From the NCBI GenBank assembly GCA_963841935.1, contig CAWJEP010000001.1:10487-74486 (forward strand): 64,000 bases of DNA, written 5' to 3'. A program made the translations under genes and the position numbers. The notes beneath the pieces are model-generated. The model saw only the letters and a list, made by a program, of their open reading frames with translations. It was not told the origin of the DNA and made no database searches. Of this stretch, positions 4,061 through 46,177 are shown in pieces (the stretch's first letter is position 1; each line of letters begins with the position of its first letter). This stretch comes from an uncultured bacterium. GTDB lineage: Bacteria; Patescibacteriota; Minisyncoccia; Phycocordibacterales; UBA6065.

Positions 4061-4069
4061 ATATTTAAA

Positions 4070-4835: not shown

Positions 4836-4869
4836 AGGCGCGGTCGTTTTCACGACCGCGCCGGAAGAG
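4836..4869 (-). terminator. rho-independent terminator (minus-strand orientation)
   Basis: A 10-bp perfect stem (ggcgcggtcg / cgaccgcgcc) is followed on the minus strand by TTTTTGTTTTTCTT. Confidence 0.55.
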
Positions 4870-4876
4870 AGTTAGT

Positions 4877-5068
4877 TCAACCAAGTTTTGCCCACGCTCT
4901 CATCCTGAGGGCTTTGAGTGAGGTCCTACCCAACTCGGTGTCTTCAGAAGGAACAAACGACGGCTTCTGTGCCGGTAGCCCCATGTCAACTCGAAGGATA
5001 TAAATATCAGCTTCGGTCAGATTTTTCCCCTGGATTTTCTCAGCGAACCGTTCTTCTGTTATAGGCAT
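4877..5068 (-). CDS. hypothetical small protein (63 aa) or non-coding transcript within an orphan transcription unit
   Basis: The ORF reads MPITEERFAEKIQGKNLTEADIYILRVDMGLPAQ... with an AGGTGA 13 nt upstream. It lies between a predicted promoter and a terminator in the rpsJ-rplC gap. No recognisable family. Confidence 0.25.
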   Translation of the reverse strand: MPITEERFAEKIQGKNLTEADIYILRVDMGLPAQKPSFVPSEDTELGRTSLKALRMRAWAKLG

Positions 5069-5145
5069 AAATTAAACCCTGTTCACCTGGAAAGCGTAAT
5101 TGCCGTCCATGTAACAGGATTCAATTTTTAAAAGAGCTATCTTGG

Positions 5146-5173
5146 ATATTACAAATATATTGATAAATGTCAA
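5146..5173 (-). promoter_or_regulatory. candidate sigma70-like promoter (TTGACA-16-TAATAT) reading on the minus strand
   Basis: The reverse complement of 5146-5173 is TTGACATTTATCAATATATTTGTAATAT. It sits immediately downstream of the rpsJ terminator. Confidence 0.35.
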
Positions 5174-5180
5174 TAGCACA

Positions 5181-5212
5181 AAAAACCGCCCTTGCGGGCG
5201 GTTTTTTGTTTA
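5181..5212. terminator. rho-independent terminator after rpsJ
   Basis: aaaaaaccgccc ttgc gggcggtttttt is a perfect hairpin with A/T runs on both sides. The rpsJ stop codon (5210-5212) abuts it. Confidence 0.65.
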
Positions 5213-5606
5213 CGCCATCTTTACATCTATATTGACGCCGGACGGAAGAGAAAGGTTCGTCAGATGCTTCGATGATTTTCGGGTTCGGGTTGAGGATGTC
5301 GATAAGGCGCTTGTGAACGCGCATTTCGAATTGTTCGCGGGCGTTTTTGTAGACGAAAGAAGCGCGATTGACCGTGTATTTTTTGATTTCGGTCGGAAGC
5401 GGAATGGGTCCCAAGACTTCGACATCATATCGGAGCGCCGTGTCGATGATTTGCTTGACCGAGGTGTCGAGGATTTTCGATTCGTAAGCGCGGACCCTGA
5501 TACGAAGTCGCGGCACGACTTCCGCCTTGGCGACTTTGGCCACAGCTTTTACAGCCGGCTTTTTCGACACCGTCTTTTTCTTTATTTCTTTCGGTTCGGT
5601 TGCCAC
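5210..5606 (-). CDS. rpsJ: 30S ribosomal protein S10 with a Lys/Ala-rich N-terminal extension; apparent +1 frameshift near 5262-5266
   Basis: Frame A gives ...RLRIRVRAYESKILD...FEMRVHKRLIDILNPNPKIIEA and then runs on through the terminator hairpin. Frame B gives the canonical S10 C-terminus LTNLSLPSGVNIDVKMA* ending exactly at the terminator. Deleting one T from gcaTctgacg restores the normal protein. Confidence 0.85.
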
Positions 5607-5610
5607 AGAT

Positions 5611-6801
5611 TTATTTTACGACTTTCGTTACGACTCCGGCGCCGACAGTCTTGCCTCCTTCGCGGATAGCAAAGCGCTGTTTGTCCTCGAGAGCGATCGG
5701 AGCGACGAGTTTTACTTTGAAAGTTATGGTGTCTCCCGGCATAACCATTTCAACTTTTTCCGGAAGAGTCACTTCGCCGGTGACATCGGTCGTGCGGAAA
5801 TAGAATTGCGGTTTGTAACCGTTGAAGAACGGCGTATGTCGTCCGCCTTCCTCTTTCTTCAAAATGTAGACTTCCGATTCGAATTCGGTGTGAGGAGTAG
5901 TCGTGCCCGGCTTGGCGAGAACTTGTCCGCGATGGACGGCGTCCTTGGCGGTGCCACGAAGAAGTACCCCGGCATTGTCTCCGGCCATACCGCTCTGAAG
6001 CTGTTTGTTGAACATTTCTATACCGGTGATGGTCGTTTTGGTCGTCGGGTGAAGACCGATGATTTCGACTTCGTCTCCGATTTTTACCTGGCCGCGTTCG
6101 ATGCGTCCGGTGACGACGGTGCCGCGTCCTTCAATGGAGAAAATGTCTTCAATCGGCATGAGGAAAGGCTTGTCGGTGTCTCGAACCGGAAGCGGAATGT
6201 AGGTGTCGAGAGCGTTCATAAGATCTTTGATTTTCTTTGCCCATTCGTCGTTGTTGTCTTTCGATTCGAGAGCTTTGAGAGCCGAGCCGCGGATGACCGG
6301 AGAATCGGTGTAGCCCTGCTTGGCGAGAAGGCCTTTGACTTCCTCTTCGACGAGGTCGATGAGTTCTTTGTCTTCAACGGCGTCGCATTTGTTGAGGAAA
6401 GCGATGACTTTCGGCACGCCGACTTGGCGGGCGAGCAAAATGTGTTCGCGAGTCTGTGGCATCGGACCGTCGATTGCGGAGACAACGAGAATAGCGGCAT
6501 CCATTTGGGCGGCGCCGGTAATCATATTCTTTATATAGTCCGCGTGTCCCGGAGCGTCGATATGAGCGTAGTGACGGGTCGGCGTCTCGTACTCGACGTG
6601 AGCGAGCGAGATGGTGACGACTTTCGTGGCGTCGCGGACAGTACCGCCTTTGGCGATATCTCCGTAAGCTTTGACTGTGGCGAGTCCGTCGCGAGCCTGA
6701 ACCGCGAGTATCGCGGTCGTGAGCGTGGTCTTGCCGTGGTCAACGTGACCGATGGTTCCAACGTTTACGTGCGGCTTTGTTCTTTTGAATTCTCCTGCCA
6801 T
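5611..6801 (-). CDS. tuf: elongation factor Tu
   Basis: The 396-aa product has [18 protein letters not shown] and NKCD motifs. Confidence 0.97.
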
Positions 6802-24259: not shown

Positions 24260-26320
24260 TTATTTATTCTCCAAAGCTTGAACCTCGGCTTTTAGCGAGT
24301 CTATTTCCGTTTGCTGTTCCTTTACCGCTTCTATTAGAGGCGCGACGAGATTTTGATATTCCACGGATTCAAGTCCGGTTTTGGGGTCTGTCTCCACCAA
24401 GTCCGGGAAAACTTTCTGCACGTTTTGAGCGATTAGACCTACCGACGGCTCGCCGTTGGCTATCCAATTGAACGTCACGCCGTTTAATTGTTCGATTTTT
24501 GAAATGGCGTCCGTAATCGGCTCTATGTTTTCCTTCAACCTTTCGTCCGAACCTTGAGACCATGTGCCCCAATACGTACCGTTGCCATAGAGACGGAATA
24601 TTCCCCCGCCGTTCGCTCCCGTATGCGCGCCGATGTCTACTTCGTTGTCTACTTGAAGAAGTCCGGAACAATTGCCGCAACCGCTCGTCGAGCCTTGAAT
24701 CCAAGTATATCCGTCAAGATACGTGGTAACGCCCGGCGTTACCAAAAACTGCAAGCTCGTAACGGCGAACTCTCCATCCGATTCCCCGCCGCCGCGTAGC
24801 CACGTGTAACCGGGCAAGTATAGCGAAGTCGAATTGTTCGGAGAATAAATAGTCCAGTTGCCTTGATTATTCAAAAGTCCGAACTCGCTCCCGTCCGCGT
24901 ATATGTAACCGCCACTTCCTCCGCCGTAAAGAACGTGAATGTTTCCGTTGACGGATAGAGATTGGTCCGGAGAAGCCGTGCCTATGCCGACAAAGCCGGG
25001 AAAATAAGTGTAGCCGCTCGTGCCGCCGTCGATTTCCAAATAACCGGCGGCGTCGCTATGAATACCGCCACGGGCTTGGAGTTGCGACTGAAAATATACC
25101 GTCCCACTATTGAAATACGCGCCACCGGGAACTATTATGTAGGACGAGGCCGAGATGTATGGGTTAGACGGATAGAAAGACATGTTGCCGTAAAACTCCG
25201 TCCCCGTTTGGTTGGCCGAAACATTGAGAGCCCAATTACCCTGATTGTTTAGAAGTCCGAAATTGCTTCCGTCGCTGTAAATATATCCCAAAACGCCGGA
25301 ATTATTGACCAAATCGATATTGCCGGCGACGGAAAGTTTTTGACCTGGACTCGCCGTGCCGATGCCTACGTTGTTGTAGACTTCCAATTCGAGAGGATAC
25401 GAGGTTATGCCTGTTTTGACTGCCTCGATGTGTCCGACGGAGCCGTCAAAAGATACTCCGACTCCCCCGGAAGTGCCGTCCCCGGGGTCGTAGGAGCCGC
25501 CGGCAAAAAGTCCCCTACCGGCCACGTCGAGTTGTGTGGAACTGCCCGGCACCACGTCCACGCCAACGCTGCCTCCGCTGTAATATATATTCGAACCGGA
25601 AGTCGTCCACTGACTACTCACGACGGAAGGCCAAGAGCTTATACAATTTCCCGCGAGACAAATCTCCGAACTCGCCCATAAATTTGCCAAGGCAAGTCCT
25701 TGTCCGCCGTAGACACTGCCGTTCGCGTCGCTTTCATAAAGCCATCCGTTAGAATAAAAATTGAGACATTGTGTGCCGCTCCCGCCGCAAATAACGCCAA
25801 GATTACCGTATCCGCCGGCGGTGGAATGAATAGCGTAATTTGAACTAAGGGCGCCAACGGTAACGGAGTTCGGCATTGACACGTTGTCCGTGCCATAAGG
25901 CACTTCCACCGCCCAGTTCGTGTTGCTACCAAGCAGTCCGAAACCGCCGGTGTCGCCGTACAAGACGCCCGAGCGCGTGGAACTATTAACAAAAGCATCT
26001 ATTCCGACACTTCCGCTGGAAGAATTTATTCTCTCAACATTGTTCCAATACGAACCCGTGACATCAAGCTTGTAAGACGGACTCGTGTTGCCTATACCAA
26101 CGTTTCCGTATTGGACGATGAGACCGTCTGCCGCGTTACCCGTGTTTAAAAGAAGACCTCCAGTCTTTGCTTGAGCCGTGCCGGAAATATTGAGAGGTGT
26201 GGAAGCGTTATTGCTCGGCGGAGTACCGGTCGGCCCAACCCATTGAGCGGATGCTATGACTGGAAATAAAAGAAAGAGGGAGATGCTAGCGAGGAGTATG
26301 AAGCGCTTTTGTGTGTTCAT
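24260..26320 (-). CDS. secreted tail-fibre-like repeat protein with C-terminal intramolecular-chaperone/autoprotease (peptidase S74-like) domain
   Basis: It has a signal peptide and repeated NVGIGT(A/S)SP..L.V.GNI motifs. The C-terminus reads SDERLKENIEPITDAISKIEQLNGVTFNW...GLIAQNVQKVFPDLV...LIEAVKEQQTEIDSLKAEVQALENK, typical of self-cleaving endosialidase/tail-spike chaperone domains. Confidence 0.7.
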   Translation of the reverse strand: MNTQKRFILLASISLFLLFPVIASAQWVGPTGTPPSNNASTPLNISGTAQAKTGGLLLNTGNAADGLIVQYGNVGIGNTSPSYKLDVTGSYWNNVERINSSSGSVGIDAFVNSSTRSGVLYGDTGGFGLLGSNTNWAVEVPYGTDNVSMPNSVTVGALSSNYAIHSTAGGYGNLGVICGGSGTQCLNFYSNGWLYESDANGSVYGGQGLALANLWASSEICLAGNCISSWPSVVSSQWTTSGSNIYYSGGSVGVDVVPGSSTQLDVAGRGLFAGGSYDPGDGTSGGVGVSFDGSVGHIEAVKTGITSYPLELEVYNNVGIGTASPGQKLSVAGNIDLVNNSGVLGYIYSDGSNFGLLNNQGNWALNVSANQTGTEFYGNMSFYPSNPYISASSYIIVPGGAYFNSGTVYFQSQLQARGGIHSDAAGYLEIDGGTSGYTYFPGFVGIGTASPDQSLSVNGNIHVLYGGGSGGYIYADGSEFGLLNNQGNWTIYSPNNSTSLYLPGYTWLRGGGESDGEFAVTSLQFLVTPGVTTYLDGYTWIQGSTSGCGNCSGLLQVDNEVDIGAHTGANGGGIFRLYGNGTYWGTWSQGSDERLKENIEPITDAISKIEQLNGVTFNWIANGEPSVGLIAQNVQKVFPDLVETDPKTGLESVEYQNLVAPLIEAVKEQQTEIDSLKAEVQALENK

Positions 26321-26341
26321 ATTGGTATCATAATAATACTA

Positions 26342-26602
26342 CTATTTCGCCTGAAGTGAGTCGAGAATGTTCTGTTCGCTTGAACTTGAGGTCGTCTTTT
26401 GCGGCGCAGACGTGGCGTTCAGACTGTAGAGAGCGCGTTTCTGCGCCGGCGTAACTCCCTTGAAAAAATTCGGTTGCGCCGACAGATTCTCTAGGGTTGT
26501 CTTTGTGATTTGCGATTGGTTTGAAATAAGAAAGTAGCTGACAACAAAATAAATGATACCGGCAAGAGCGAGAACAATGATTGCTACAAGTATTTTTTTC
26601 AT
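26342..26602 (-). CDS. small single-TM protein (hypothetical)
   Basis: MKKILVAIIVLALAGIIYFVVSYF is the TM helix, followed by an ST-rich tail. Confidence 0.4.
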   Translation of the reverse strand: MKKILVAIIVLALAGIIYFVVSYFLISNQSQITKTTLENLSAQPNFFKGVTPAQKRALYSLNATSAPQKTTSSSSEQNILDSLQAK

Positions 26603-27801
26603 TATATTTCTTGAAATTGTGGATTAAACGTCGTTGGCGTGATGATTAGATTTTTTACCGAAGAACTGACGCCCGATGACGTGCCTTGGAGAGTGATGTT
26701 GCAGGGATTCGGACTCCCGGAGCAATATGAAGCGGTCAATGGTTCATTGATTTCCAATTGGAAAGTGAAGCTGCCGTTTGGACCGATGATTACCGGGCTT
26801 GGGTTCGCGGTGTAAGCGCCGCCGTTTACCGAGTAGAGCGCCGTGGTCGAAGCATTGGGCATCGTCGGATAACCGGAAATGGAAACCGTGACGTTGCCGC
26901 TAAATCCGCCGACGGGATTTACCGTTATGGTTTTTGTCTGCGACTGTGACCAGCCGGCGGGCAAGAAGCTTATTTTTATCGTGTCGTCTGGACCAAGAGA
27001 GAAACCCGGCGGCTGCGAGCCGACGGCGAACGAGACGTTTGACGATGCCACGGTGTTGCCGCCGGACGTGCAGGTTATATTGAAAGCGTAAGAACCGGTG
27101 GTAAGTCCTTGGGTTGCCGTCGAGCCGGACGAAGTGATGCCCGTCACGGTGGTAAACTGCGTGGCGCCCGAAGAAGTTTTCGAAAGCGTGCACGTGGCTC
27201 CGGAAAGATTTACCAGAGTGTAGACAAGATTCACGACCGTACCGTAAGGCACATTATTGTTGTTGGCGACCGATGTCCCGAGTGGAGATTGGGCGTCGAG
27301 GCCGACGCTCGAAGAAAGTTGCACGCCGTTCGTCCCGGCCGCGTTGAAACTTACCCAGCCGAGAAGGCCGCTGTCCCAAGCGTAGCCGTCGAAAAAAGAA
27401 CCCGAAAGCGTGACGCCGTAATTCGTGCCGGAAAGAGAAATCCAGCCGTCCCAACCGTTTCCGTCGGCGGAAACGGCCTTCGCCCAGCCGATGAGATTTG
27501 TGCCGCTCATCTGGGCGTTCTCCGCCGACGTTCCCGAGCCGCTGGGGAATCCGGAGAGACCGCCAAATTGTATCCAGCCCACGGAATCGGACCACGCGTA
27601 GCCCGTGAGTGTGCCGTCGTTGTTGTCCGTCACACCATAGTCCACGGCGCCGCAGGTGCTCGTGTTCGTGCAATTGAAACTAATCCACCCGGCATCATCG
27701 GACCACGCCCAACCAGCCATATTGTTTTCCGTTCCTGCGTGGGCAAACGCCGGTAGGATAAAAATAGAAACCGAAATTAAAAATAGTGCGAACCTCTTCA
27801 T
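26602..27801 (-). CDS. secreted protein with G(W/Y)AWSD..GWISF repeats and a C-terminal domain shared with the TSP1 protein
   Basis: It has a signal peptide and four or more GWAWSDDAGWISF-like repeats. The last 130 aa or so align with the C-terminus of 29728-31532 and end ...TPTTFNPQFQEI*. Confidence 0.6.
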   Translation of the reverse strand: MKRFALFLISVSIFILPAFAHAGTENNMAGWAWSDDAGWISFNCTNTSTCGAVDYGVTDNNDGTLTGYAWSDSVGWIQFGGLSGFPSGSGTSAENAQMSGTNLIGWAKAVSADGNGWDGWISLSGTNYGVTLSGSFFDGYAWDSGLLGWVSFNAAGTNGVQLSSSVGLDAQSPLGTSVANNNNVPYGTVVNLVYTLVNLSGATCTLSKTSSGATQFTTVTGITSSGSTATQGLTTGSYAFNITCTSGGNTVASSNVSFAVGSQPPGFSLGPDDTIKISFLPAGWSQSQTKTITVNPVGGFSGNVTVSISGYPTMPNASTTALYSVNGGAYTANPSPVIIGPNGSFTFQLEINEPLTASYCSGSPNPCNITLQGTSSGVSSSVKNLIITPTTFNPQFQEI

Positions 27802-27822
27802 CCTTCTAATAATATCATTATT

Positions 27823-28323
27823 TCAAAGTTTCCTGTCTCGAATGCCTAGTTTGTATCCGACAAAGCAAAAAATGGGGTGAATGGCGAGTATCAAAAGGAC
27901 GCTCAATAAATAAGCGGAAAGCGTTATGTATCCCATGAAAAAAACTATGGCGCCGGTAAAAATTATGTAATTACCGTGGTCTACTACCGGCACATAACCG
28001 CCGTCGGGAACATGAAATCTTCTTTTTATGAAACTGCCGAGAATGTGGCCGAAAAAACAGCCGAAACCTATTATGATACCGACCGGGGAATAAAAAATCT
28101 GAATTAAAATTCCGACAAGAAGAGAAACTACCAGCCCCCACCATGTGGCGGATTTTCCGATAAGTCTCTCGCCCCAAAGACGGAGCCCTCCGTCGAACGG
28201 CGGATCAAAATTTTCCAAATGATAAAGTTTTTTGAAGGCTCCGAGAAAATTGTGGGACATATTCACCAGTCCGCAGAGAATGGCGAACCGTAAAGCTTCC
28301 ATGAATATAAAATAATTCATCAT
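27823..28323 (-). CDS. CTP-transferase-1 superfamily membrane protein, closest to CDP-archaeol synthase (CarS/DUF46) or short CdsA/dolichol-kinase-like enzymes
   Basis: The 166-aa product has GKSATWWG (compare G.GKTWEG/WRG), GHILGSFIKRR (compare GDL.ESFLKRR) and VVDHGNYIIFTG (compare LLDQLDFVIGA of CarS). About five TM helices. Confidence 0.5.
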   Translation of the reverse strand: MMNYFIFMEALRFAILCGLVNMSHNFLGAFKKLYHLENFDPPFDGGLRLWGERLIGKSATWWGLVVSLLVGILIQIFYSPVGIIIGFGCFFGHILGSFIKRRFHVPDGGYVPVVDHGNYIIFTGAIVFFMGYITLSAYLLSVLLILAIHPIFCFVGYKLGIRDRKL

Positions 28324-29721
28324 TTAATATGTGACCACGAAATTATTCACCGGAAAGGCTTCCACGGTATGAATTCCTCCGGCCAAAATCAGGAGTTCGC
28401 TCTCGACATCGACGATTCTCGGTATGCATATAAAATAATCAAAGGTCACGGCGTAATAATTCCATCCGTTTTTCTGTCCGAATAAATGGATGTCGGAAAT
28501 GTTCGCGAGACTGTGTGTCGCGGCCGGCTTCACGAGTGGCTCCTTGGAAACGACAAAAAGAGTGCTCGTGGCATTCACGCGCCAATTGTCACACACAACA
28601 TTGTCAAAAGATATCGGGAAACGATTTGTCGGGTCGCCGGTTTCTTTCGCTATATTTCCTATGGTCACGGGACTTGTCGTGGCGATGTCATAGAAATACA
28701 AATCCCCGATTTTTTCCAAAAATCTCCCCGGCGCGGACGCGTCATAAGTTCCAAGATAAACATTTTGATAAGCTATGGACGTCGTGTCGTAAGAAATGTC
28801 TCCTTCCGTTGAAACAAATACCGGGACTAAAAAACAAATACCCAAAAGCAAAACGGCGGTGGCGCCGAAGACGCGAAAGCGCGAGGCGCCTCTTTCCGCG
28901 AGAAAAAACCATCCGAAATACACGAGTTCCATGCCAAAAACATGTTCAAGATACACCGATACTTGAGTGTGACTTATGGCGCCGAAGGGATAGGCGATAA
29001 TAACGGCGATGGGCGTGACTAGAGAAAGAGCAACGGGGAAAATCCAGCCGCGGAAACTTTTAGGTGCGTAGCCGTAGCACATAACGAGCAGGATGAGAAA
29101 AGCCGGAATAGCTTCGGAGTTCAAAAGTCCTCCGTCGAAAATATTTTTCAAAAAAGAAAGCAGAGCGATGGCGAAAAGTATCTGGAGGCCGAATCTTTTT
29201 TTATTTTTCCCGACAAAATCGAACAGGAGCCATATTCCAAGGATAGACACGGTAAGACATCCGGCAAGTCCGACCCAGCCGACCCATGTCGGCAAAATAT
29301 TGAGGTACGCGAAACCAAAATCGGCTTTTGTCTCGAGCGCGAGCCGAAGCTGGGTCGGAAAAAAAGATGAAACCAGACCGAAAGGAAATTTCAAAACATG
29401 AGTGTGAAAGAAATGCGTCGTAGAAATATCCCTTTCCCCTATCGCTGACAGAACATAGTTCGCCGGAACGGCGAGCATTTTATAAAAGTAGAAAGTTACG
29501 CCAAGACCGAGAAGGAAAATCGCCGTCGAAACGATGAAAAATATATTTTTCAGGGGAAATTTCCGCGCGACAGGCGTTTCGACGGCGATTTTTTTTCGCC
29601 ACGCGATGATATTTACGACAGCCAAAAGCAGAATGGCGAAAAGAAAGAGAAAAACTTTCACGTCACTGCGACCCGCGGCGAAAAGGTCGGTAATAATGTG
29701 CAGAAAGAAGAAATAATTCAT
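28324..29721 (-). CDS. large polytopic membrane protein with a C-terminal extracytoplasmic domain (hypothetical; GT-C glycosyltransferase-like or sorting-enzyme-like)
   Basis: The 465-aa product has 10 or more TM helices followed by a soluble tail of about 150 aa. It is tightly coupled to the flanking genes. Confidence 0.55.
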   Translation of the reverse strand: MNYFFFLHIITDLFAAGRSDVKVFLFLFAILLLAVVNIIAWRKKIAVETPVARKFPLKNIFFIVSTAIFLLGLGVTFYFYKMLAVPANYVLSAIGERDISTTHFFHTHVLKFPFGLVSSFFPTQLRLALETKADFGFAYLNILPTWVGWVGLAGCLTVSILGIWLLFDFVGKNKKRFGLQILFAIALLSFLKNIFDGGLLNSEAIPAFLILLVMCYGYAPKSFRGWIFPVALSLVTPIAVIIAYPFGAISHTQVSVYLEHVFGMELVYFGWFFLAERGASRFRVFGATAVLLLGICFLVPVFVSTEGDISYDTTSIAYQNVYLGTYDASAPGRFLEKIGDLYFYDIATTSPVTIGNIAKETGDPTNRFPISFDNVVCDNWRVNATSTLFVVSKEPLVKPAATHSLANISDIHLFGQKNGWNYYAVTFDYFICIPRIVDVESELLILAGGIHTVEAFPVNNFVVTY

Positions 29722-29727
29722 CGAAAC

Positions 29728-31532
29728 TTATATCTCCTTAAAATTCGGATTGAAACTGTTTGGACTTACGGTGAGGTTAAATGTCGTGGATGTGTCGCCG
29801 CCGGAAGCGTCAAACGTCACATAGCAGGAATTGGTAAAGCCCGAAGGGAATTGTATTTGGATATTGAGACCGACATTTCCGGACGGCGCTCGATAATTAC
29901 CGGAACCGTCGTCGCTCATTACCGTGGAAGGACTTTGAGTGAATGCTCCGCCGTCAAAAGAGTAGCCGGAGGGATTCGGCTGGCAGGTGGTTGATTGAAC
30001 GGTCACAGTTACGGGAGAACTGAATCCTCCCGTAGGATTGACTTCCAGCGTGCTTACGTTCGTCGTGCCGCCTTCGTTGGCTACGAACTGTATGCTTGCC
30101 GAAGACGGGCCGGAAAGAGTAAAACCCGACGTGGGATTGTTGCCGTTACTACCGCCATTGTTACCGCCGTTGGTACCGCCGTTGGTACCGCCGTTGGTAC
30201 CCGTTCCAGTCTGACCCGATGGATAAGTGCACGGAGCGGTTCCCTCATAGTTGGTTGCGTTTGGATCTGTGCAAAGCTCCGAATATGTGCACGGTAGAGC
30301 GCCTCCGTAATTATTTGCGTTCGGGTCGACGCAAAGTTGCGCCGACGGATATGTGCACGGCGCGTAGCCGTCATAATTCGACGCGCTCGGGTCCGTGCAT
30401 TCCGCCGGACAAGAAGCCGTCGTGGAAATAACCGACCCGTCCCAACACGTCTGGGTTGTGGGATTTGTCGTGCACGACTGAGTGTTGCAATCCTGACTTT
30501 CCGAACTGCTTCCGGAACAAGTCGCGCCGCCGTTTGCCGGAGTGGGATTCGTGCAAGTTCTGGTCTGTGTTTGATTTCCGCCGCCACAAGTAGCAGAACA
30601 AGTTCCCCATCCAGACCAAGCCGACCAGCCACCGTTTACGGGACATACTTGGGTGTTGCAAGTTTGAGAACTGCTTCCGGAACAAGTCGCGCCGCCGTTT
30701 GCCGGAGTGGGATTCGTGCAAGTTCTGGTCTCCGTACCACCGCCGCAAGTTTCTGAACACGTTCCCCAACTTGACCAGCCGCCGTCGACTTTCGTGGGCG
30801 GAGTAACGCACGCTGGTTCAGTACATGTTTGAGTTTGCGTGCCTGTGCCGCTAGTATCTCCGGAGCAATCAGCACCGCCGTTTGCCGGAGCGGGATTCGT
30901 ACACGTTTTGGTCTGTGTACCGGTACCGCAAGTTACACTGCACGTTCCCCAAGCCGACCATTCGCCATTTACAGGACACGCTTGGGTATTGCAAATTTGA
31001 GATTCGGAACTGTCTCCGGAACAATCGGCTCCGCCGTTTGCCGGAGCAGGATTCGTGCAAGTTCGCGTCGCGGTTTGCGTGCCGCCACCGCAAGTGGCTG
31101 AACATGTTCCCCAACTTGACCAGTCGGACCAGCCGCCGTCCACCTTTTGTGGTGTCGGATTTGTTGAGGGACAATCGCTAAGAGCGCTTTGAGAGAACTC
31201 ATTCGTCACGCCGTCGGGACACGTCCAGTAACAAGGTTCTGTTCCGCGGTAGTTTGTTGCGGTGTGATCTAAACACGCGTTACCGCAAAATAGTCCGCAC
31301 TCGCCATTTGGATACGATGTTGTGGGGTCATTGGGACAAGTGCAGTCCGGGAGACTTCCGCCGCCTCCATAACCGCCACCGCCAAAAGGACCGCAGTTAA
31401 TGGCTGAGTTACTGCATGCGCCGCCATAATACCGCCAGATTCGCTCCCCACTTGGGCAAAAGCTAAATGAGAAGATAAAGAAAAAATCAGAGAGAAAATA
31501 AATATTCTTGATAAATATAATCTGGTATTCAT
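29728..31532 (-). CDS. secreted Cys-rich protein with four thrombospondin type-1 repeats; signal peptide in a different frame (frameshift near 31441-31457)
   Basis: There are four copies of W(S/T)[18 protein letters not shown]..RTCTNP.PANGGA.CSG....Q.CNTQ.CP (WSxW and CSVTCG motifs). Three C(T/V)DP.A.NY....PCTY repeats follow. Then comes a TNGG linker and a C-terminal domain ending [10 protein letters not shown]. The signal peptide [26 protein letters not shown] starts at ATG 31532-31530 in another frame, and the main frame is open upstream to about 31520. Confidence 0.7.
30370..31160. repeat. intragenic tandem repeats of about 165 bp (TSP1 modules)
   Basis: Two copies are near-identical: aactgcttccggaacaagtcgcgccgccgtttgccggagtgggattcgtgcaagttctggtct at 30504-30565 and again at 30669-30731. 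Two more diverged copies lie upstream. Confidence 0.7.
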
Positions 31533-31542
31533 ATTTTTATTT

Positions 31543-32949
31543 TTATATGTTTCCACTCATGGTCGGTGGTTGAGGCAAGGGCTTTTTCTTTTTTAACACA
31601 ACCACAATAGCCAAAATAACAAGAACGCCTGCGATTGCATAATATATGTACATCGTGGTGTTGGATGTCCATTGAGTCTTCGGTGACGGACACCTGTTCG
31701 CGTCACATATGTACAGAACGGATGAGGACGCGAGGATTGTCCCGTACTGGTCGGTAGTCTTTATGCTGAGAGTTAATGGTTCAAAAATATTTGTCGTGGG
31801 AGAAAAATGAATCTGGAAAGGATAGGATGAGGCGTTTCTTTCGGAGAAACCTCCGGACCAGACGCTCTTGCCAAGAGAATCAACAAGAGAAAGGTCAACC
31901 GTCGTCGTGGCCGCGGTGTTGGAGTAATTTTGGGTGAGGCATCCTGCCACGCTGTTTGAAACTCCAGCGGAAATTGGAAAATTGGAGAGGTAAAGCGAGC
32001 GGGCGCCCGGCTCCACGATGTCACTTCGACCTATGCGAAGAGAGAACATTGATTCTTTGTCGCCATCCTTTAGTTCTCCGACCAAAAGATATTTTGCGTG
32101 GACAAAATTGTTGTACGTGAAAGAAACGACACTATTTTTGTTCGGCGAAAGTTGAACGGAATCGGTTTCCGTGGCAACAAGCGCTGTGGGATTTATAAAA
32201 TTGCCGCTATATAGATACCAACCGACCGTGACATTATGAGAAGCGGTGTATGTATTCTCTACGCCAACTGAAGTAACCGCCGTCGGCACGGTAATTGTCG
32301 AAAGCATCTGCGTCATCGGCACAACGCCGTTCACTTTCATCGTCGGCAAATCAAAAAATGATGTTTGTTCTTCCGTTCCGGTAACGGCCAACGGATATGT
32401 GGCTAGCGGAATATTGAGATATTCGTTTCCTCCAATGGCAAATTGGTCGGAACCATTTAAAAACAAGTCAACTTGATATGGTCCGGTAACTAAATCTCGT
32501 GGCACGGGGTAATTGAAAGAAAATGACGCTGTTGCTTTGGGGTTTAGGTATATTCCCGTCAAAGGAATAATCCGGTCCACCGTGTCTGTCGCCATATCAT
32601 AGGAAGAACCGGATTTTTTTTGAAGTTTTACTACGCGAGCGACAAGAGTTAAGTCGGAAACCGGATAACTGTTGAGATTATCGATAGTGCCGGCAATAAT
32701 CACATTGCTACCGGCAGAGACTTTGGTATTACCCACAAGAAAACTCGCTCTAACGAGAGAGTTAGCCAAAAGACATGTCGAAGGGAAAATCAGTTGCGTC
32801 GGCGTGGTGGACGAAAACGAAATACCGGCTCCCAACTGAGAAACGTCGGCCGCCGAGACAAATTGAAAAGAAAGGAACGGTAGGAGAAAAAAAACAAAAG
32901 AAAATATAAGACGCCTAGAACTCATGCCGAAAAGTATACCAACTGACAT
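31543..32949 (-). CDS. type-I membrane surface protein (signal peptide, beta-rich ectodomain, C-terminal TM anchor plus KKKK stop-transfer)
   Basis: The 468-aa product ends with ...YYAIAGVLVILAIVVVLKKKKPLPQPP. It overlaps the downstream gene by 14 nt. Confidence 0.55.
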   Translation of the reverse strand: MSVGILFGMSSRRLIFSFVFFLLPFLSFQFVSAADVSQLGAGISFSSTTPTQLIFPSTCLLANSLVRASFLVGNTKVSAGSNVIIAGTIDNLNSYPVSDLTLVARVVKLQKKSGSSYDMATDTVDRIIPLTGIYLNPKATASFSFNYPVPRDLVTGPYQVDLFLNGSDQFAIGGNEYLNIPLATYPLAVTGTEEQTSFFDLPTMKVNGVVPMTQMLSTITVPTAVTSVGVENTYTASHNVTVGWYLYSGNFINPTALVATETDSVQLSPNKNSVVSFTYNNFVHAKYLLVGELKDGDKESMFSLRIGRSDIVEPGARSLYLSNFPISAGVSNSVAGCLTQNYSNTAATTTVDLSLVDSLGKSVWSGGFSERNASSYPFQIHFSPTTNIFEPLTLSIKTTDQYGTILASSSVLYICDANRCPSPKTQWTSNTTMYIYYAIAGVLVILAIVVVLKKKKPLPQPPTMSGNI

Positions 32950-33009
32950 GGAAATAAAAAGGGCTTCTCTTCGGTATTACTACCTTGGAGAAGCCCTTGA
33001 GAACTAATA

Positions 33010-34482
33010 CTACTCGTCATTGGAAGTCAGTCCTTTACTTGTCGATTGCCCTAGCACCTTCTTACGAATGCGTGCCAGTTCTGCGTAGACGATTGGTCTT
33101 AGAACATGAGCGCTCGCCGCTTCCTGAAGAAACAAACGAGCCGTTTCGTCCTTGCCAGCTTCCACATAGTAAAGACCAATAACGGACATGAGCGCCGGAT
33201 CGCGAGAACCGTCACTGTACGGCTTGAGCAGAATTGCCTCTGCTCGAGCGCCGTATAGCGGAATGTATGGCGACAACACCGAACTCTTGGCCATATATCC
33301 CATCTCCTTAACGATGAAGTTGCCCTGAATCCGAGCGCGAGTGACCGGGTCGGCATCCGATAGATGCAGTTCCGGAATCACGACCGAATCAACCTTCAAG
33401 AGGTTGAGTGGATTCTCCATCGCCTGCGGCAAATAGTCCGAAAGCTCTTTGGTCACATCGGCGAAACCCATGCCGAAACACTGCCTAAACAGTGCCTCGG
33501 TAGCAGGCTCGCGCGATGACTTGTCGACGAAATCCCACAGTGCCTTGCGGCGCGCGTGAGTCTCGTCTACAAATACCCAATACAAGAAAAGAGAGCCTTC
33601 GTAATGCCACAAGTCCAGCTGGTACTGCGACCCTTGCTGCGCCTCGCCGAACGGTCCGGTAAGGAAGCTTCCCATAGGTATGAGTGACGCCGGTTCGACT
33701 CTGTAGAGCTTGCCGTCGTCATCCTTGAATACCTTATAGCCTTGTGGATTTGGGGTTCCAGCGGTTACCGGAACATTAATCCTCGGCCAATACACCGATG
33801 GAATCGTCAGTGCCTCCTCGTCAGACCAGCGGATTTGCTGATAGAGAGAAAACACCGTCGACTGGAACCAGTAAGGAAGCGTAGGGATCCGACGCTCAAG
33901 CATGTTGAGCACATAGCCGATGGTTAGGCTGATGCCCCTGCGATCGCCATCATTTAGCTCGACCATCATCGTGGTGGATTCGGAATCCGTGAGACTGACT
34001 TGGGGAACCATGCCATAAAGCGATGATACCCTGCCGTTGGAGGTTACTCTCGAGGATCTTTCCGAAGACTCGGAATCTCCAACGGCTTTCACGATTTCCT
34101 TGCCCATCTTGTCTCCCATTTCTGGGGGGATGAGGATGAGTGTTATTGGCGCGGTGCGCTCGAACTGTAAACGCGACGGCAGAATCTCTTCCAACTCCGC
34201 TAGTCGTTGCGTAAACTGTCCGACAAACCACAGGGTCGTACTGTCGCTACACTTGGAGATGACTTCGAGGCCCGGAACAGATAAGTATGTCCAAGGCTTC
34301 GTCCCCTTCTGCGGATTTTCCTCCGTAACCATAAATGGCGGGAGATCTACCCTCTTACCTTCGCGAAACGCCTTGAGCTCTTGGTCGCTCCTGGCATCCG
34401 CGTTGATGTTCCTGACAAAGAGTCCGAGTGCGACGAATGCCGCAACAAGAACTCGAATCACTAACTTGTTGTTGAGATGCAT
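33010..34482 (-). CDS. secreted hypothetical protein (490 aa)
   Basis: It has a signal peptide and no recognisable family. It is the first gene of the minus-strand surface operon. Confidence 0.5.
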   Translation of the reverse strand: MHLNNKLVIRVLVAAFVALGLFVRNINADARSDQELKAFREGKRVDLPPFMVTEENPQKGTKPWTYLSVPGLEVISKCSDSTTLWFVGQFTQRLAELEEILPSRLQFERTAPITLILIPPEMGDKMGKEIVKAVGDSESSERSSRVTSNGRVSSLYGMVPQVSLTDSESTTMMVELNDGDRRGISLTIGYVLNMLERRIPTLPYWFQSTVFSLYQQIRWSDEEALTIPSVYWPRINVPVTAGTPNPQGYKVFKDDDGKLYRVEPASLIPMGSFLTGPFGEAQQGSQYQLDLWHYEGSLFLYWVFVDETHARRKALWDFVDKSSREPATEALFRQCFGMGFADVTKELSDYLPQAMENPLNLLKVDSVVIPELHLSDADPVTRARIQGNFIVKEMGYMAKSSVLSPYIPLYGARAEAILLKPYSDGSRDPALMSVIGLYYVEAGKDETARLFLQEAASAHVLRPIVYAELARIRKKVLGQSTSKGLTSNDE

Positions 34483-34698
34483 TTTTGTGCACTCCTTTCT
34501 GTTTTGATTGTTACTTTGTGTGTGAAACTGACAAAAATGTCAATGTACTATCACCTACATTATACTACAATGACTAGGCACTTGTCAACTACCCTAAAAA
34601 GTGTTCTGCTCATTGACTCCCCATTAGCCCCGTGGTAGGCTTATTTCGTTACAAGTTCGCCTCGCGGCGGACTTCTTTTATTAATAGACCACATATAT

Positions 34699-42768: not shown

Positions 42769-43443
42769 ATGACCGACTGCCACACATTGGTAATGAGCGA
42801 TCTGCATCTCGGCTCGCGCGTCTGCCGCAGAGACAAAATCCTCGGCGTTCTAAAAAATAGCCGCCTCCACACCCTCGTTATAAACGGCGACCTCTTCGAC
42901 AGCAACGACATAGAGAAATTGACCGACAAAGACTGGGAAATCCTCGAAACCCTGCGCAAAATAGCTCAAAAAAACACCGTCCTCCTCGTTGGCGGCAATC
43001 ACGGCAGAAAGCTCGACTTATTCGCGGAGGATTTCGGCGTGAAAATAGTGGATGAATACGCTTTCACGCTCGGCAAAAACAGATTTCTCTGTCTTCACGG
43101 CGACGAATTCGACCTTTTCGTCAAACACTTCCCTATGACTAGCAATATGTTCGGCAAATTATATTATTTGATACAAAAATTGAGCCGGAAAAAGCAAAAA
43201 GGTCCCGTGATGGTGAAAATGATTATGAAGAAAGTCTTGCGCGTGCCGCGCAGACAGGAGCGCCTGGCGCTCAAGCGAGGAGCAAGCGACGGCGCGGATG
43301 TTGTCATCTGCTCGCATACGCATATTCCTCATATGGAAACCAAAAACGGCATTCTCTTCATCAACTCCGGCTCTTTCTGCGACAATCCGAGCAACTATGT
43401 GGCAATTAGTCCGACTGGTGAGACGGAACTTGTGGGGGTTTAA
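42769..43443 (+). CDS. calcineurin-like metallophosphoesterase (LpxH/YfcE-like)
   Basis: The motifs are SDLHLG, NGDLFD, GGNHG, LHGDE and SHTHIPH. Confidence 0.8.
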   Translation: MTDCHTLVMSDLHLGSRVCRRDKILGVLKNSRLHTLVINGDLFDSNDIEKLTDKDWEILETLRKIAQKNTVLLVGGNHGRKLDLFAEDFGVKIVDEYAFTLGKNRFLCLHGDEFDLFVKHFPMTSNMFGKLYYLIQKLSRKKQKGPVMVKMIMKKVLRVPRRQERLALKRGASDGADVVICSHTHIPHMETKNGILFINSGSFCDNPSNYVAISPTGETELVGV

Positions 43444-43446
43444 AAT

Positions 43447-43815
43447 CTACTTAATTTTCTTCTTTTGTGCGCTTGGTATGTGTTTATCAAGTGGCTCGTG
43501 AATTTCACGCACTATCTCGCTGGTATTATTATCTTTCACAACCTCATCGTATCGGTTGTTTTCTTTATCTATAACACGATCTACCGTTACTCCATCCGGG
43601 TGTTTAATTAAATCCCCACTAATTTTCCAACCTGTATAAACTCTTTTCAAAAAATCTTTAATGCCAGGACGTTTATGCGTCATACTAATTGAATGTAACC
43701 TAGTCTTATAGACTCCTACTGAAACATTCATTACAAAACGATTACCCGTGTCTTTTTTACAAGATTCACAGTATGAGTTTTCTTTTTCTTTGTTACACAC
43801 AGAACAATATCTCAT
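43447..43815 (-). CDS. hypothetical protein with N-terminal zinc-ribbon (AT-rich island)
   Basis: CSVCNKEKENSYCESC. It is markedly AT-rich relative to its flanks. Confidence 0.4.
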   Translation of the reverse strand: MRYCSVCNKEKENSYCESCKKDTGNRFVMNVSVGVYKTRLHSISMTHKRPGIKDFLKRVYTGWKISGDLIKHPDGVTVDRVIDKENNRYDEVVKDNNTSEIVREIHEPLDKHIPSAQKKKIK

Positions 43816-43827
43816 AATATCTTGCTG

Positions 43828-44295
43828 TTATTCTAGACCTGTCTGATTACAAATTTCTTTCTTTAATTTATAAACTGTCTCTAGCATCAAATCTGTATCG
43901 AACCGATCCATTTGTACAGCAGTCTCACCAAAACGAGTATCAAGAGTGTTTTCATACTCCCTGATAAGCTCAAACAGTCTTTTATTCTGTGCTATTTCGG
44001 CAAATACCGAAATCTTGTTTTCATAGAATGAAATTATCTTAGTGACACTATGACCTAATCCTTCTTTTTTTGCGTCAAATTTTAAATTTTTATGTGCAGC
44101 AAGAGATTTTGTAAAAAGTTCCATGGAAAAATACAAGGCGTGTGGATAGACCCAAAAAGAAATAAGTCTCGACCCTTTCTTTTCTCTTTCATCTTTCAAA
44201 ATTAAAAAAGTTTGAAGCCATTCTGTACCGACATGAAAAAACATCGACCACTTTGGTGGAAAAGTATCGTTAAATTTCGGAAATTTTGTTGGCAT
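43828..44295 (-). CDS. hypothetical protein (AT-rich island)
   Basis: The 155-aa product has no family. Confidence 0.4.
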   Translation of the reverse strand: MPTKFPKFNDTFPPKWSMFFHVGTEWLQTFLILKDEREKKGSRLISFWVYPHALYFSMELFTKSLAAHKNLKFDAKKEGLGHSVTKIISFYENKISVFAEIAQNKRLFELIREYENTLDTRFGETAVQMDRFDTDLMLETVYKLKKEICNQTGLE

Positions 44296-44298
44296 ATC

Positions 44299-44631
44299 TT
44301 ATGATAAAACCAAAACTACTATTAGTCCGAAAATAAAAACTCCGATGGCTGTCCATATTCCCCAGTACAAGGCTATAAGACTGAGTATGATAACGATTAC
44401 CCATTTACCTATTTTCAAGAAACTTCTCTTCTTATATTCTGTAACTAATTTTTTTATATTTTGTTCCGCTTCTCGTTCAATTTTATCCGTAACTTCAATC
44501 TGATTTTTTACGTAATCTTCAGTCTCACCTTCGCGACCCTGTTTCTTCAACATCTCAACTGTCCCTTTCATTAGATTATAACCAGCACGCGCCATATCAT
44601 TTTTATAATTGCGTTCAGGTATATTATTCAT
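44299..44631 (-). CDS. hypothetical membrane protein (AT-rich island)
   Basis: A charged N-terminal half and two C-terminal TM helices. Confidence 0.4.
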   Translation of the reverse strand: MNNIPERNYKNDMARAGYNLMKGTVEMLKKQGREGETEDYVKNQIEVTDKIEREAEQNIKKLVTEYKKRSFLKIGKWVIVIILSLIALYWGIWTAIGVFIFGLIVVLVLS

Positions 44632-44654
44632 AATTTCTATTATTGAACTAAAAC

Positions 44655-45230
44655 CTATTTCTTCCCATGCTCAAACAAATCCCCTGGTTGCCATGGAGTG
44701 CCGCACGCGGGGAGAAGCCAATAATCGACGCCGAGGTAGCCAGCGACGCGCCAGGCGAGGATGAGACCGATAGCCAGAGTGAAAAGTATCGGATTGACGC
44801 TTACCGTACCGGCGAGGAGATAGTTGAGATTCATAAAGAGTCCGAAGAATGCCGCGATGCCGGTAAAAGCGCCGATGATGAGAGCGATGCCGACGAGGAG
44901 TTCGCCGTAGGAGACGACGTACGACCAGACGACCGGATGCGTCAGTATTGTTGATTTGAGAAAAAGTGCATACCAACTCTGTACGTCGGGATGATCCCCT
45001 GCCGCTTTGCCGAGTGCACCGTTTACAAATCCCGTGAGCGCCGTGCCTGCCGCACTTCCCGTCCACGCGACGCTTGTGACTTTTTCCCACGCCGCAGTCA
45101 CCCACTGATAGCCGACATAGAGCCTGACGACAAGCCAGAACCAAGAAAGTTTCGTGTTCGCAAAAAGTGCCATTACCGCCGGAGCTTCATTATATGTTCT
45201 GTGTTTCATATCGAAATTATACACCTGCAT
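44655..45230 (-). CDS. DoxX-like integral membrane protein (tentative)
   Basis: Four TM helices; WFWLVVRLYVGYQW resembles the DoxX N-terminal helix. Confidence 0.35.
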   Translation of the reverse strand: MQVYNFDMKHRTYNEAPAVMALFANTKLSWFWLVVRLYVGYQWVTAAWEKVTSVAWTGSAAGTALTGFVNGALGKAAGDHPDVQSWYALFLKSTILTHPVVWSYVVSYGELLVGIALIIGAFTGIAAFFGLFMNLNYLLAGTVSVNPILFTLAIGLILAWRVAGYLGVDYWLLPACGTPWQPGDLFEHGKK

Positions 45231-45442
45231 ATCTTTCGAGCGAATAATTTATAAAGGAGTACACTTACCATATGATAAAAGGAAATTTCATCGGCGCGGC
45301 AATCGTCGCGATAATTTATACGGTCTATATTTTGTGGAATCCCCTTCCGTCAAAATCGCAAATGGTAATAACTTTGGTGGTTCTCAACGCCCTGACCATC
45401 GTCCTGATGGCTTTCGCTTTCAGACCGTAACCTATCAAAATG

Positions 45443-45460
45443 ATGCGGGATGGGAGAATC
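45443..45460. repeat. 18-bp direct repeat of the tRNA-Gly(TCC) 3' end (att-like scar)
   Basis: tgcgggatgggagaatcg is identical to 45600-45617. Confidence 0.6.
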
Positions 45461-45599
45461 GGTCGTTACACGACCAGTATCCCAATTGGATTTTTTATTC
45501 GTGAACATTCTAAAAAATCTCAATCGGGCTTCGATATCTCCCACGGAAGCATAATATGCTTCCTATCCTCGCAAAATATATTCGCTGCGCTCGTTATTT

Positions 45600-45670
45600 T
45601 GCGGGATGGGAGAATCGAACTCCCGACCACAGTTTGGAAAACTGTTGTTATACCATTTAACTAATCCCGC
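45600..45670 (-). tRNA. tRNA-Gly (anticodon UCC)
   Basis: The minus-strand sequence is GCGGGATTAGTTAAATGGTATAACAACAGTTTTCCAAACTGTGGTCGGGAGTTCGATTCTCCCATCCCGCA. It has a 7-bp acceptor stem, a GGGAG/CTCCC T-stem and a TTCGATT T-loop. No encoded CCA. Confidence 0.85.
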
Positions 45671-45737
45671 CTACGCTATCGCTTCGGCGGGCAGGCCCGC
45701 TTGAGCAAAAACACTTTACCACAAGACATCAAAAATC

Positions 45738-46054
45738 TCACTCGCTCTCCCCTTTTGAGAGCCGCACGACTTCGTCGAAATCGTCTTCGGCGGATAATTT
45801 ATTTTTTTTCTCGAATCCGCATTTCACGCACTGCTGAATTATGGAAAAATCCCCTTTCGTTTTGATTACCGAGATCGGTTTCATCATTCCTCCGCACTTT
45901 TCCGCCCGATCACCAGGATTTTTGTCGACATGTTTCGACCAGAGGCAATGCGGACAATGATTTGTGTAACCATTACCGACGACTTCCCTTCCGCAATTCT
46001 CGCAGACGAAATTTTCGACCGTTTTTTGGAATTTTTTCGTGTCCTTTAGCATTT
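45738..46054 (-). CDS. RNHCP-domain zinc-ribbon protein
   Basis: CENCGREVVGNGYTNHCPHC...CVKCG. The start is trimmed to MLKDT because the longer ORF overlaps tRNA-Pro. Confidence 0.55.
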
Positions 46055-46055
46055 T

Positions 46056-46126: not shown

Positions 46127-46177
46127 TGAAACATCATACTAGCACACTCGCCCCGCCGAAGCTTCCGCGGCGGCGGG

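Follow-up and report, generated by a model that had tools for sequence, protein, structure and literature searches.

We analyzed a 64,000-nucleotide stretch of DNA (the window) from an uncultured patescibacterium (GenBank assembly GCA_963841935.1, contig CAWJEP010000001.1, positions 10,487 to 74,486) and the gene in it that encodes a 686-amino-acid (aa) protein with a predicted N-terminal signal peptide and a C-terminal S74 domain, the intramolecular chaperone also carried by phage tail fibers. This protein is probably a chromosomal, Sec-exported, homotrimeric surface fiber of a Paceibacteria-class bacterium of the candidate phyla radiation (CPR), sharing its building blocks with phage fibers and the mosaic adhesive trimers (MATs) of Bdellovibrio bacteriovorus. 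We favor this reading because of the domain, the nonphage context, the signal peptide, and the synteny of the surrounding gene cluster. The original prediction had also described a cellular fiber, and it gains support from the catalytic dyad and fold of the S74 domain, the lack of a prophage in the window, the housekeeping surroundings of homologs, and the MAT precedent.

Organization of the fiber protein

The gene and the parts of its product are as follows (residues are those of the protein).

24260 to 26320, minus strand: fiber gene, 686-aa secreted S74-terminated protein (open reading frame [ORF] call and Pfam; stop codon at 24260 to 24262)
26246 to 26320, minus strand: predicted Sec-type signal peptide, residues 1 to 25 (read from the sequence: n-region KR, 16-residue hydrophobic core, cleavage motif A-S-A followed by Q)
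26123 to 26245, minus strand: CPR-specific N-terminal head, residues 26 to 66 (head-only hidden Markov model [HMM]; proposed cell-proximal docking end)
26057 to 26107, minus strand: first VGIG loop, residues 72 to 88, GNVGIGNTSPSYKLDVT (read from the sequence)
25325 to 25375, minus strand: second VGIG loop, residues 316 to 332, NNVGIGTASPGQKLSVA (read from the sequence; comparison with a MAT ORF and PDB profile comparison)
24947 to 24997, minus strand: third VGIG loop, residues 442 to 458, GFVGIGTASPDQSLSVN (same evidence as the second)
24986 to 25189, minus strand: conserved 68-aa module, residues 378 to 445 (module identities, invariant columns)
24551 to 24946, minus strand: distal stalk and tip, residues 459 to 590 (C-terminal end of the mature fiber after the predicted cleavage; candidate ligand-binding region)
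24263 to 24550, minus strand: S74, or intramolecular chaperone auto-processing (ICA), domain, residues 591 to 686 (Pfam, conservation, model, Foldseek, PDB matches)
24548 to 24550 and 24533 to 24535, minus strand: codons of the putative catalytic residues Ser591 and Lys596 (24533 to 24550 translate to SDERLK)

The ORF fills exactly the span in which a tail-fiber-like gene had been predicted. An identical protein is already on record on one 226-kb NCBI contig and one Logan contig, and its near-identical cluster mate, P0121, differs by only 2 substitutions, a pair from which selection is not readable. PF13884 was the sole Pfam match in the protein, and no NCBIfam model matched it. In PHROGs, 34 tail-fiber and baseplate families matched, all in the C-terminal part only; the best spans begin at residue 357 or later, and the longest cover residues 357 to 686 and 481 to 685. 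All six cysteines lie in closely spaced pairs (178/185, 221/226, and 548/551), a pattern that we take as typical of exported proteins and that is accompanied by a DsbA-like gene in the neighborhood. An AlphaFold monomer of the full-length protein reached a mean predicted local distance difference test (pLDDT) score of 54.6 and is reliable for residues 590 to 686 and partly for residues 370 to 430. Poor scores outside the S74 domain are expected because an intertwined trimer was modeled as a single chain, and they make fold matches in those parts (Foldseek ranks 10 and below) meaningless.

The S74 domain and its catalytic dyad

The Pfam profile PF13884 (Peptidase_S74, "chaperone of endosialidase") matched residues 591 to 642 with an E value of 3.9e-18 and 65.9 bits, over profile positions 1 to 57 of 58 and well above the curated cutoff of 22 bits, which establishes the predicted domain identity. 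An S-D-x-x-x-K motif opens the domain, and Ser591 and Lys596, five residues apart, match the Ser-Lys dyad of S74 domains, with Ser591 as the putative nucleophile and Lys596 as the putative base. The original prediction had staked its assignment on the conservation of this Ser and Lys; S591, D592, and K596 are indeed invariant in an alignment of 31 homologs, as are G628, A631, Q632, and P639. The SDERLK of the fiber aligns with the SDRRIK of the distal subunit of the phage S16 long tail fiber (6f45) and with the SDERLK of 8jov. Self-cleavage would yield a fragment of 96 aa (residues 591 to 686); the predicted C-terminal domain is thus present but slightly shorter than the roughly 110 aa first given.

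Residues 590 to 686 were modeled with a pLDDT of about 90 and end in a long helix (residues 655 to 685), the element that builds the trimeric coiled coil in solved intramolecular chaperones. Foldseek searches with the modeled domain returned the ICA domain of MyRF (7dc3) as the best match (E = 1.6e-5, TM score of 0.65) and also the endosialidase chaperone 3gw6 (E = 7e-3); as modeled, the C terminus of the fiber has the solved intramolecular-chaperone fold. A family profile compared with PDB sequences matched the phage fibers 8jov and 6f45, MyRF 7dc3, and the GA-1 neck appendage 3gud, and its alignment to 7dc3 takes in a V-G-I-N-T...P...L loop upstream of the MyRF cleavage site.

Predicted signal peptide and CPR-specific head

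The N terminus of the fiber, MNTQKRFILLASISLFLLFPVIASA followed by QW, has the n/h/c layout of a Sec signal peptide and obeys the A-x-A rule, from which we infer that the protein is exported. CPR homologs have an equivalent hydrophobic N terminus, followed by A-x-A/(Q)W. The head comes next, with the pattern Q-W-x-G-P-T-x-T-P-P-x-N-N-x-x-x-P-L-N-x-S-x-T-A-Q-x-K-x-G-G-L in the window and the family consensus W-x-x-P-T-x-x-P-P-x-x-N-x-x-x-P-L-N-x-S-x-x-x-Q-x-K-x-G-x-L.

An HMM of the head only matched 44 of about 390 fetched proteins, in every case immediately behind the hydrophobic N-terminal segment, and none of the Bdellovibrio ORFs. Among these 44 proteins, one of which has 3,523 aa, S74 forms the terminus of at least 32 and about 10 have other, Cys-rich termini, although some of those lacking S74 may be truncated by contig ends. 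A search with residues 24 to 90 (head and first loop) was swamped by the VGIG loop, and the size of the head family is not obtainable from it. By analogy with the N-terminal domain of MATs, the head may dock the fiber on the cell.

A cellular, nonprophage context

The neighbors of the fiber gene encode triose-phosphate isomerase, phosphoglycerate kinase, HIT, RecJ, CarS-like, and, 4 kb away, DsbA-like proteins. The window also holds a ribosomal-protein operon, four tRNAs, and genes for EF-G, NusA, a CCA-adding enzyme, and an M23/LysM peptidase. By its sequence it belongs to a Paceibacteria/Parcubacteria-class CPR bacterium; the best named relatives of its EF-G, at 82 to 86% identity, are Candidatus Paceibacterota, Taylorbacteria, and "Patescibacteria group." The 64 kb contained no genes for capsid, terminase, tail, integrase, or lysis proteins, and none of ten unannotated window proteins had a PHROG match. 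The sole "Phage_integrase" Pfam match, a tyrosine recombinase 24 kb from the fiber gene (49983 to 51191), was considered as a prophage integrase and rejected, as it is most similar to XerD/XerA/XerC (E of about 1e-73). With housekeeping neighbors, a recombinase of Xer type only, and unannotated proteins foreign to PHROGs, the earlier statement that no other phage genes lie nearby is upheld. Homologs elsewhere have similar surroundings: the distant P0014 (Minisyncoccia) and P0042 (Spechtbacterales) also lie among housekeeping genes, and those at loci L002, L003, and L005 are in cellular contexts.

These data bear on whether the protein is a phage or prophage tail fiber, either in an integrated remnant or on a misassembled or misbinned phage contig. 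The 34 PHROG tail-fiber families and the best PDB sequence matches, which are phage fibers, speak for this idea, but the PHROG matches are confined to the C-terminal part, the 64 kb contain neither a virion-gene neighborhood nor any other phage gene, and the recombinase is of Xer type. Moreover, the GC content of the fiber gene (0.50 to 0.53) is that of the window and matches the genome, the flanks are tpiA/pgk and nusA, the gene cluster is syntenic in a relative, and the N terminus carries a signal peptide, where a phage tail fiber would have no secretion signal and a virion-attachment region. We regard the idea that the protein is a phage or prophage fiber as effectively refuted.

A mosaic body with an exchangeable tip

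The motif N-V-G-I-G-T-A-S-P-x-x-x-L-x-V-x-G-N occurs three times in the body, at residues 74, 318, and 444, which agrees with the repeated NVGIGTASP...GNI motifs noted before. The VGIGT-x-x-P-x-x-x-L-x-V loop is among the most widespread fiber repeats (15,438 representative clusters at an E value of ≤1e-3), and proteins with VGIG loops reach about 7,700 aa and up to 52 copies.

The 68-aa module has 16 invariant columns and the pattern GN-x-S/R-F-x-x-x-N-P-Y-I-x-A-S-S-Y...P-G-G-A-Y-F...R-G-G-I-H-x-D...G-G-T-S-G. It is 57 to 78% identical to modules in CPR proteins, in collagen-like proteins of Polyangium (Myxococcota), which have C-type-lectin-like ends, and in proteins of Elusimicrobiota; no Pfam family covers it. 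Its region is the sole body segment modeled at a pLDDT of 72 to 80, and a model of residues 360 to 445 only gave a pLDDT of 68 and a predicted TM score of 0.36. In P0021 and P0047, the module directly precedes a T4 gp34 trimerization domain (PF21446).

Different parts of the fiber have their closest counterparts in different proteins. Residues 1 to 90, with the head, are 68 to 70% identical to P0003/P0010; residues 72 to 159 are 87.5% identical to P0002, in which they are relocated to positions 413 to 500; residues 230 to 335 match P0022/P0026; and residues 378 to 457 match, at 42 to 65%, P0006 (in two copies), P0047 from Elusimicrobiota, and the Polyangium collagen-like proteins. The tip and S74 domain (residues 433 to 686) are 53 to 63% identical to those of P0003 to P0005, and the syntenic homolog P0002 carries an unrelated tip. 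The architecture is thus a mosaic, and such module exchange, as read from the sequences, is what would be expected of receptor-binding fibers. By analogy with endosialidase, T5, and Bd3182, the tip (residues 459 to 590) may bind a ligand; neither Pfam nor NCBIfam revealed a recognizable lectin or enzyme domain in it.

The first descriptions of S74 domains came from endosialidases and tailspikes. With this history, a signal peptide, and no anchoring motif, the protein could be a trimeric enzyme released in soluble form and not an anchored adhesin, namely, a depolymerase of the tailspike type that, like endosialidases, degrades polysaccharide, here of the host or the environment. Searches of Pfam, NCBIfam, and PHROGs gave no glycosidase or lyase domain outside the fiber/S74 region, however, and the body consists of VGIG loops and short MAT-stalk-like modules and not of a large catalytic β-helix or propeller. 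The same conserved head on many differently tipped proteins suggests docking, and we consider a released enzyme improbable.

Relation to known S74 proteins

The MATs of B. bacteriovorus are 21 chromosomally encoded proteins with signal peptides (Caulton et al. 2024, PMC10769870). Thirteen of them end in an S74 domain with the SDxxxK motif, and one, Bd3182, cleaves itself at Ser782, a reaction abolished by the S782A substitution (PMC10769870). The capping loops of the MAT and MyRF β-helix follow the consensus V-G-G/N-pi-x-x-P-x-x-x-L (PMC10769870), and a 2025 review summarizes MATs as surface-exposed putative adhesins (PMC12428579). Exposure at the surface and binding to glycans of target cells are experimental traits of this family.

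The CPR fiber resembles MATs in being chromosomal and outside any prophage, in its signal peptide, in a long VGIG...P...L stalk, in the C-terminal S74 with SDxxxK, in its mosaic modules and tips, and in having S74 and non-S74 members under one N-terminal domain. The body region of the family profile matches five MAT fragments solved by Caulton and colleagues: 8ond (Bd2133, E = 3.5e-14), 8oml, 8ojn, 8ol4, and 8on4. A Bdellovibrio S74 domain (L014) is 52% identical to that of the window fiber, and nine full-length Bdellovibrio-type S74 ORFs from related loci contain 1 to 12 VGIG loops (for example, VGIGTASPGAKLHVS versus VGIGTASPGQKLSVA in the window). The CPR loop resembles the published MAT consensus, with one additional residue separating VG from P. 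All nine of these ORFs carry the MAT N-domain (…TYQGRI-K-DG…; N-domain HMM E values of 1e-59 to 1e-87), which the HMM also detects in P0039, P0050, P0099, P0028, and P0045, but it matches neither the window fiber nor any CPR homolog at an E value of ≤10. In place of this β-rich domain of ~130 aa, the CPR proteins have a head of roughly 40 aa; they also differ in length (686 aa, against about 1000 to 2300 aa for MATs), in the envelope to which they belong, and in the gene for a transmembrane partner upstream. Judged from these sequences, the CPR proteins are organized in the manner of MATs: a single presumed docking end carries tips that can be exchanged, with or without S74. They would also work as MATs do, yet they are not strict members: the stalk loop and mosaic structure are shared and the N-domain is not.

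With phage fibers and tailspikes (endoNF/K1F 3GW6, T5 pb1 4UW8, S16 gp37 6F45, and GA-1 3GUD), the CPR fiber has in common the S74 domain, the Ser-Lys dyad, and the terminal helix, and the same logic of trimerization followed by cleavage would be expected of it. Unlike them, it is not a virion protein, has a signal peptide, and lacks a virion-attachment N terminus. Virion fibers assemble in the cytoplasm, without a signal peptide; because it has one, the CPR fiber would fold after export. MYRF, whose ICA domain (7DC3) is the best structural match, shows the phage domain at work in a cellular protein. There, a membrane anchor follows the domain and cleavage frees a transcription factor, whereas the CPR domain is terminal and its cleavage would free the chaperone only. 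Trimeric autotransporter adhesins of the YadA family are also trimeric fibrous bacterial adhesins, and JGI labels the homolog P0116 as one. The CPR fiber has no C-terminal β-barrel translocator and no Pfam domain of a YadA anchor, head, or stalk; its C terminus is the S74 helix, and trimerization would be brought about by the cleavable S74 domain. We therefore rejected this assignment.

Cellular S74 proteins are already known (MAT, MYRF), and in kind the fiber is not unprecedented. What is new is the CPR head in place of the MAT N-domain, common to S74 and non-S74 proteins, together with a conserved small transmembrane partner and the position of the fiber gene within a conserved surface-protein cluster. 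The searchable literature, whose coverage is incomplete, contained no paper linking S74, endosialidase, or tail fibers with CPR, Patescibacteria, or DPANN.

A syntenic gene cluster and a small membrane partner

The fiber gene is the last of nine genes for secreted and membrane proteins, with the following features.

24260 to 34482, minus strand: nine-gene cluster, fiber gene last (gene map; gaps of -14 to 60 bp)
34559 to 34588, minus strand: candidate sigma-70-type promoter TTGACA-18-TATAAT (perfect consensus, upstream of the first cluster gene in the nusA-divergent intergenic region)
31269 to 31556, minus strand: 95-aa signal-peptide ORF just upstream of the gene for the thrombospondin type-1 (TSP1) repeat protein (gene map)
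29728 to 31209, minus strand: TSP1-repeat protein, four eukaryote-type repeats (PF00090, E = 1.9e-35)
27823 to 28323, minus strand: CarS-like membrane protein of the CDP-archaeol synthase family (PF01864, E = 7e-15; conserved in L003)
26602 to 27801, minus strand: 399-aa secreted protein with G-W-A-W-S-x-x-x-G-W-I-S-F repeats (no Pfam match)
26342 to 26602, minus strand: partner gene, 86-aa single-pass membrane protein (directly upstream of the fiber gene, 21-bp gap)

In order, the cluster encodes two secreted proteins (490 and 468 aa), the 95-aa signal-peptide fragment, the TSP1 protein, a 465-aa polytopic membrane protein, the CarS-like enzyme, the 399-aa secreted protein, the 86-aa membrane protein, and the fiber. 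The nine genes likely form one operon. The TTGACA-18-TATAAT sequence is the sole 12/12 match between 23000 and 35000 and, as a consensus match alone, a candidate promoter. In L003/L004, around the 41%-identical homolog P0002, the order is kept: nusA, 489 aa, 459 aa, TSP1, the 465-aa transmembrane protein, CarS-like, 413 aa, 107 aa, and S74.

The partner protein has one transmembrane helix, a low-complexity linker, and the C terminus ...ILDSLQAK, and it belongs to no Pfam family. Similar ORFs (72 to 120 aa) directly precede the S74 gene in L003 (9658 to 9981), L002/L007 (L002, 9623 to 9952), L005 (5097 to 5417), and L006 (9645 to 9929). They end in LDSLKAK, LDALKAH, LEELRNR, or LRSLQAN, giving the motif (I/L)L(D/E)xL(K/Q/R)A(K/H/N). 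An HMM trained on five partner sequences and searched against the 5,551 ORFs of all 84 loci and the window found only two further matches, in L044 (9123 to 9341; E = 1.4e-4) and in L021, a metagenome-assembled genome of Saccharibacteria (2 to 301; E = 5.7e-4). Each of these ORFs again directly precedes an S74 gene, which brings the total to seven CPR loci. This is good evidence, at the level of sequence and gene order, that the fiber and the small membrane protein form a gene pair; that the partner serves as an anchor or assembly factor is speculation.

In the Spechtbacterales locus L005 (8859 to 17018), the fiber and partner genes adjoin weak matches to T4SS-pilin, TrbC, and TrbL, components of the patescibacterial type IV secretion system (T4SS), a neighborhood that may reflect a functional link or coincidence. 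The protein might be an accessory fiber that docks not on the envelope but on type IV pili, on the patescibacterial T4SS, or on a contractile-injection-like particle. The L005 neighborhood and the need of the head for a docking partner would fit such a role, and a possible interplay of MATs with type IV pili has been raised (PMC10769870). However, the window cluster, L002, and L003 are all devoid of genes for pili, a T4SS, or a sheath/tube, and we give this possibility little weight.

The cluster also bears on a nonadhesive role, in which the protein would be a structural fiber of the envelope (for example, a spacer, a spike associated with the S-layer, or a connector between cells) and S74 would only build a stable trimer. 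Such a role would suit a conserved cluster whose products are secreted or are related to the envelope and to lipids, including the CarS-like enzyme and the 465-aa membrane protein, and a tip of no recognizable lectin or enzyme type. Against it, the tip is swapped between syntenic homologs and modules are exchanged, a pattern typical of receptor binders that evolve under diversifying pressure but unexpected in a purely structural element, and the characterized relatives (phage fibers and MATs) are binders. A structural fiber is unlikely in our view, yet it is the alternative that we take most seriously.

Other observations concern the remaining cluster genes. The L003 counterpart of the TSP1 protein (3987 to 6407) has 806 aa and more repeats. 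Because the signal peptide lies on a separate 95-aa ORF, the TSP1 gene of the window may be split by a frameshift or an assembly error. The 399-aa and TSP1 proteins have a common C-terminal domain, ending in ...FNPQFQEI and ...FNPNFKEI, and relatives in L006 (8370 to 9623) and L008 (7799 to 9592) end in ...FVPAFQEF and ...KYTEF; this domain could be a signal, restricted to these CPR bacteria, by which proteins are sorted or anchored. The CarS-like protein matches NCBIfam PRK04032 with an E value of 6e-18, yet below the model cutoff. Elsewhere in the window, the region from 43000 to 47000 has a GC content of 0.40 to 0.46 against about 0.49. It contains tRNAs Gly-TCC, Pro-TGG, Gly-GCC, and Arg-TCG among small ORFs (RNHCP, UPF0102/NERD-like, DoxX, and one ORF with a weak, subthreshold Paratox match), and no mobile-element genes were found there.

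Distribution of the family

An alignment-based scan with one genome per species confirmed at least 493 relatives; a single-protein scan of species-representative genomes with the fiber sequence found none. Among the matches listed, full-length relatives occur only in Patescibacteria (Paceibacterota, Minisyncoccia, Paceibacteria, Saccharibacteria, and Parcubacteria). The best of the listed matches to S74 only come from many Patescibacteria classes, DPANN archaea, Bdellovibrio, Pseudobdellovibrio, Bacteriovoracaceae, Oligoflexia, Omnitrophota, and Bacteroidota. That the closest listed S74 relatives are concentrated in lineages that live attached to other cells or prey on them (Patescibacteria, DPANN, Bdellovibrio-like bacteria, and Omnitrophota) is no more than suggestive. 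NCBI routinely names the CPR homologs "tail fiber domain-containing protein."

We checked three DPANN loci, from a member of the Nanoarchaeota (L015, 9587 to 10276), a member of the Woesearchaeota (L084, 8750 to 10306), and an unclassified archaeon (L056, 54 to 2651). Their S74 ORFs match PF13884 with E values of 1e-15 to 1e-18 and lie beside genes for TBP, DNA ligase, ribosomal protein L15e, MCM, and Kae1, which are cellular and not viral contexts. The gene downstream of the L015 S74 gene encodes a secreted protein of 662 aa that includes a pretoxin-HINT domain.

Proposed mode of action

We propose that the signal peptide (residues 1 to 25) would direct export and then be removed. Outside the cytoplasm, three S74 domains would join through their terminal helices and template an intertwined β-helical stalk back toward the N terminus. 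After folding, the Ser591-Lys596 dyad would cut just before Ser591, freeing the 96-aa chaperone and exposing the tip (about residues 459 to 590). The CPR head would hold the mature fiber of roughly 565 residues on the surface, possibly through the small membrane protein, and the tip would bind a ligand on a different cell, with the host of the presumed episymbiont as the most plausible target. Strong homology to endoNF, T5 pb1, MyRF, and Bd3182 argues for the trimerization and cleavage steps; analogy and the mosaic pattern of tip swapping point to retention on the surface and binding.

Several points weigh against a surface fiber that binds other cells. Export, trimerization, cleavage, anchoring at the surface, and adhesion are all predicted properties, and the β-helical trimer is deduced from homology only, the monomer model being unreliable outside residues 370 to 430 and 590 to 686. 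The mature protein has no recognized anchoring motif (LPXTG, lipobox, or transmembrane segment), so it may be released instead of retained. The lineage enrichment is biased, because the ranking of the matches reflects their similarity to a query from CPR bacteria.

Implications

Fibers tipped with S74 or other ends, sharing a lineage-specific head and each paired with its own small membrane protein, might tentatively be seen as a modular system by which CPR bacteria recognize their hosts and of which DPANN archaea have counterparts, a broader idea that we hold with clearly less conviction than the identification of the fiber itself. For annotation, the name "tail fiber domain-containing protein" should not be taken as a prophage marker in CPR genomes. 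How ultrasmall CPR bacteria find and attach to their hosts is largely obscure, and the searchable literature discusses no candidates beyond type IV pili and some putative adhesins; the family described here is a concrete and testable candidate with interchangeable tips, a docking head, and a partner gene, for CPR specialists a useful lead on host recognition more than a surprise. If the idea is true, the phage-derived receptor-binding toolkit of Bdellovibrio would have been refitted with another docking end for another envelope, and the MAT concept would reach from one predator across a large share of the bacteria, and perhaps into DPANN archaea. The host range of uncultivated symbionts would then be readable, and perhaps predictable, from their fiber tips, as it is in phages.

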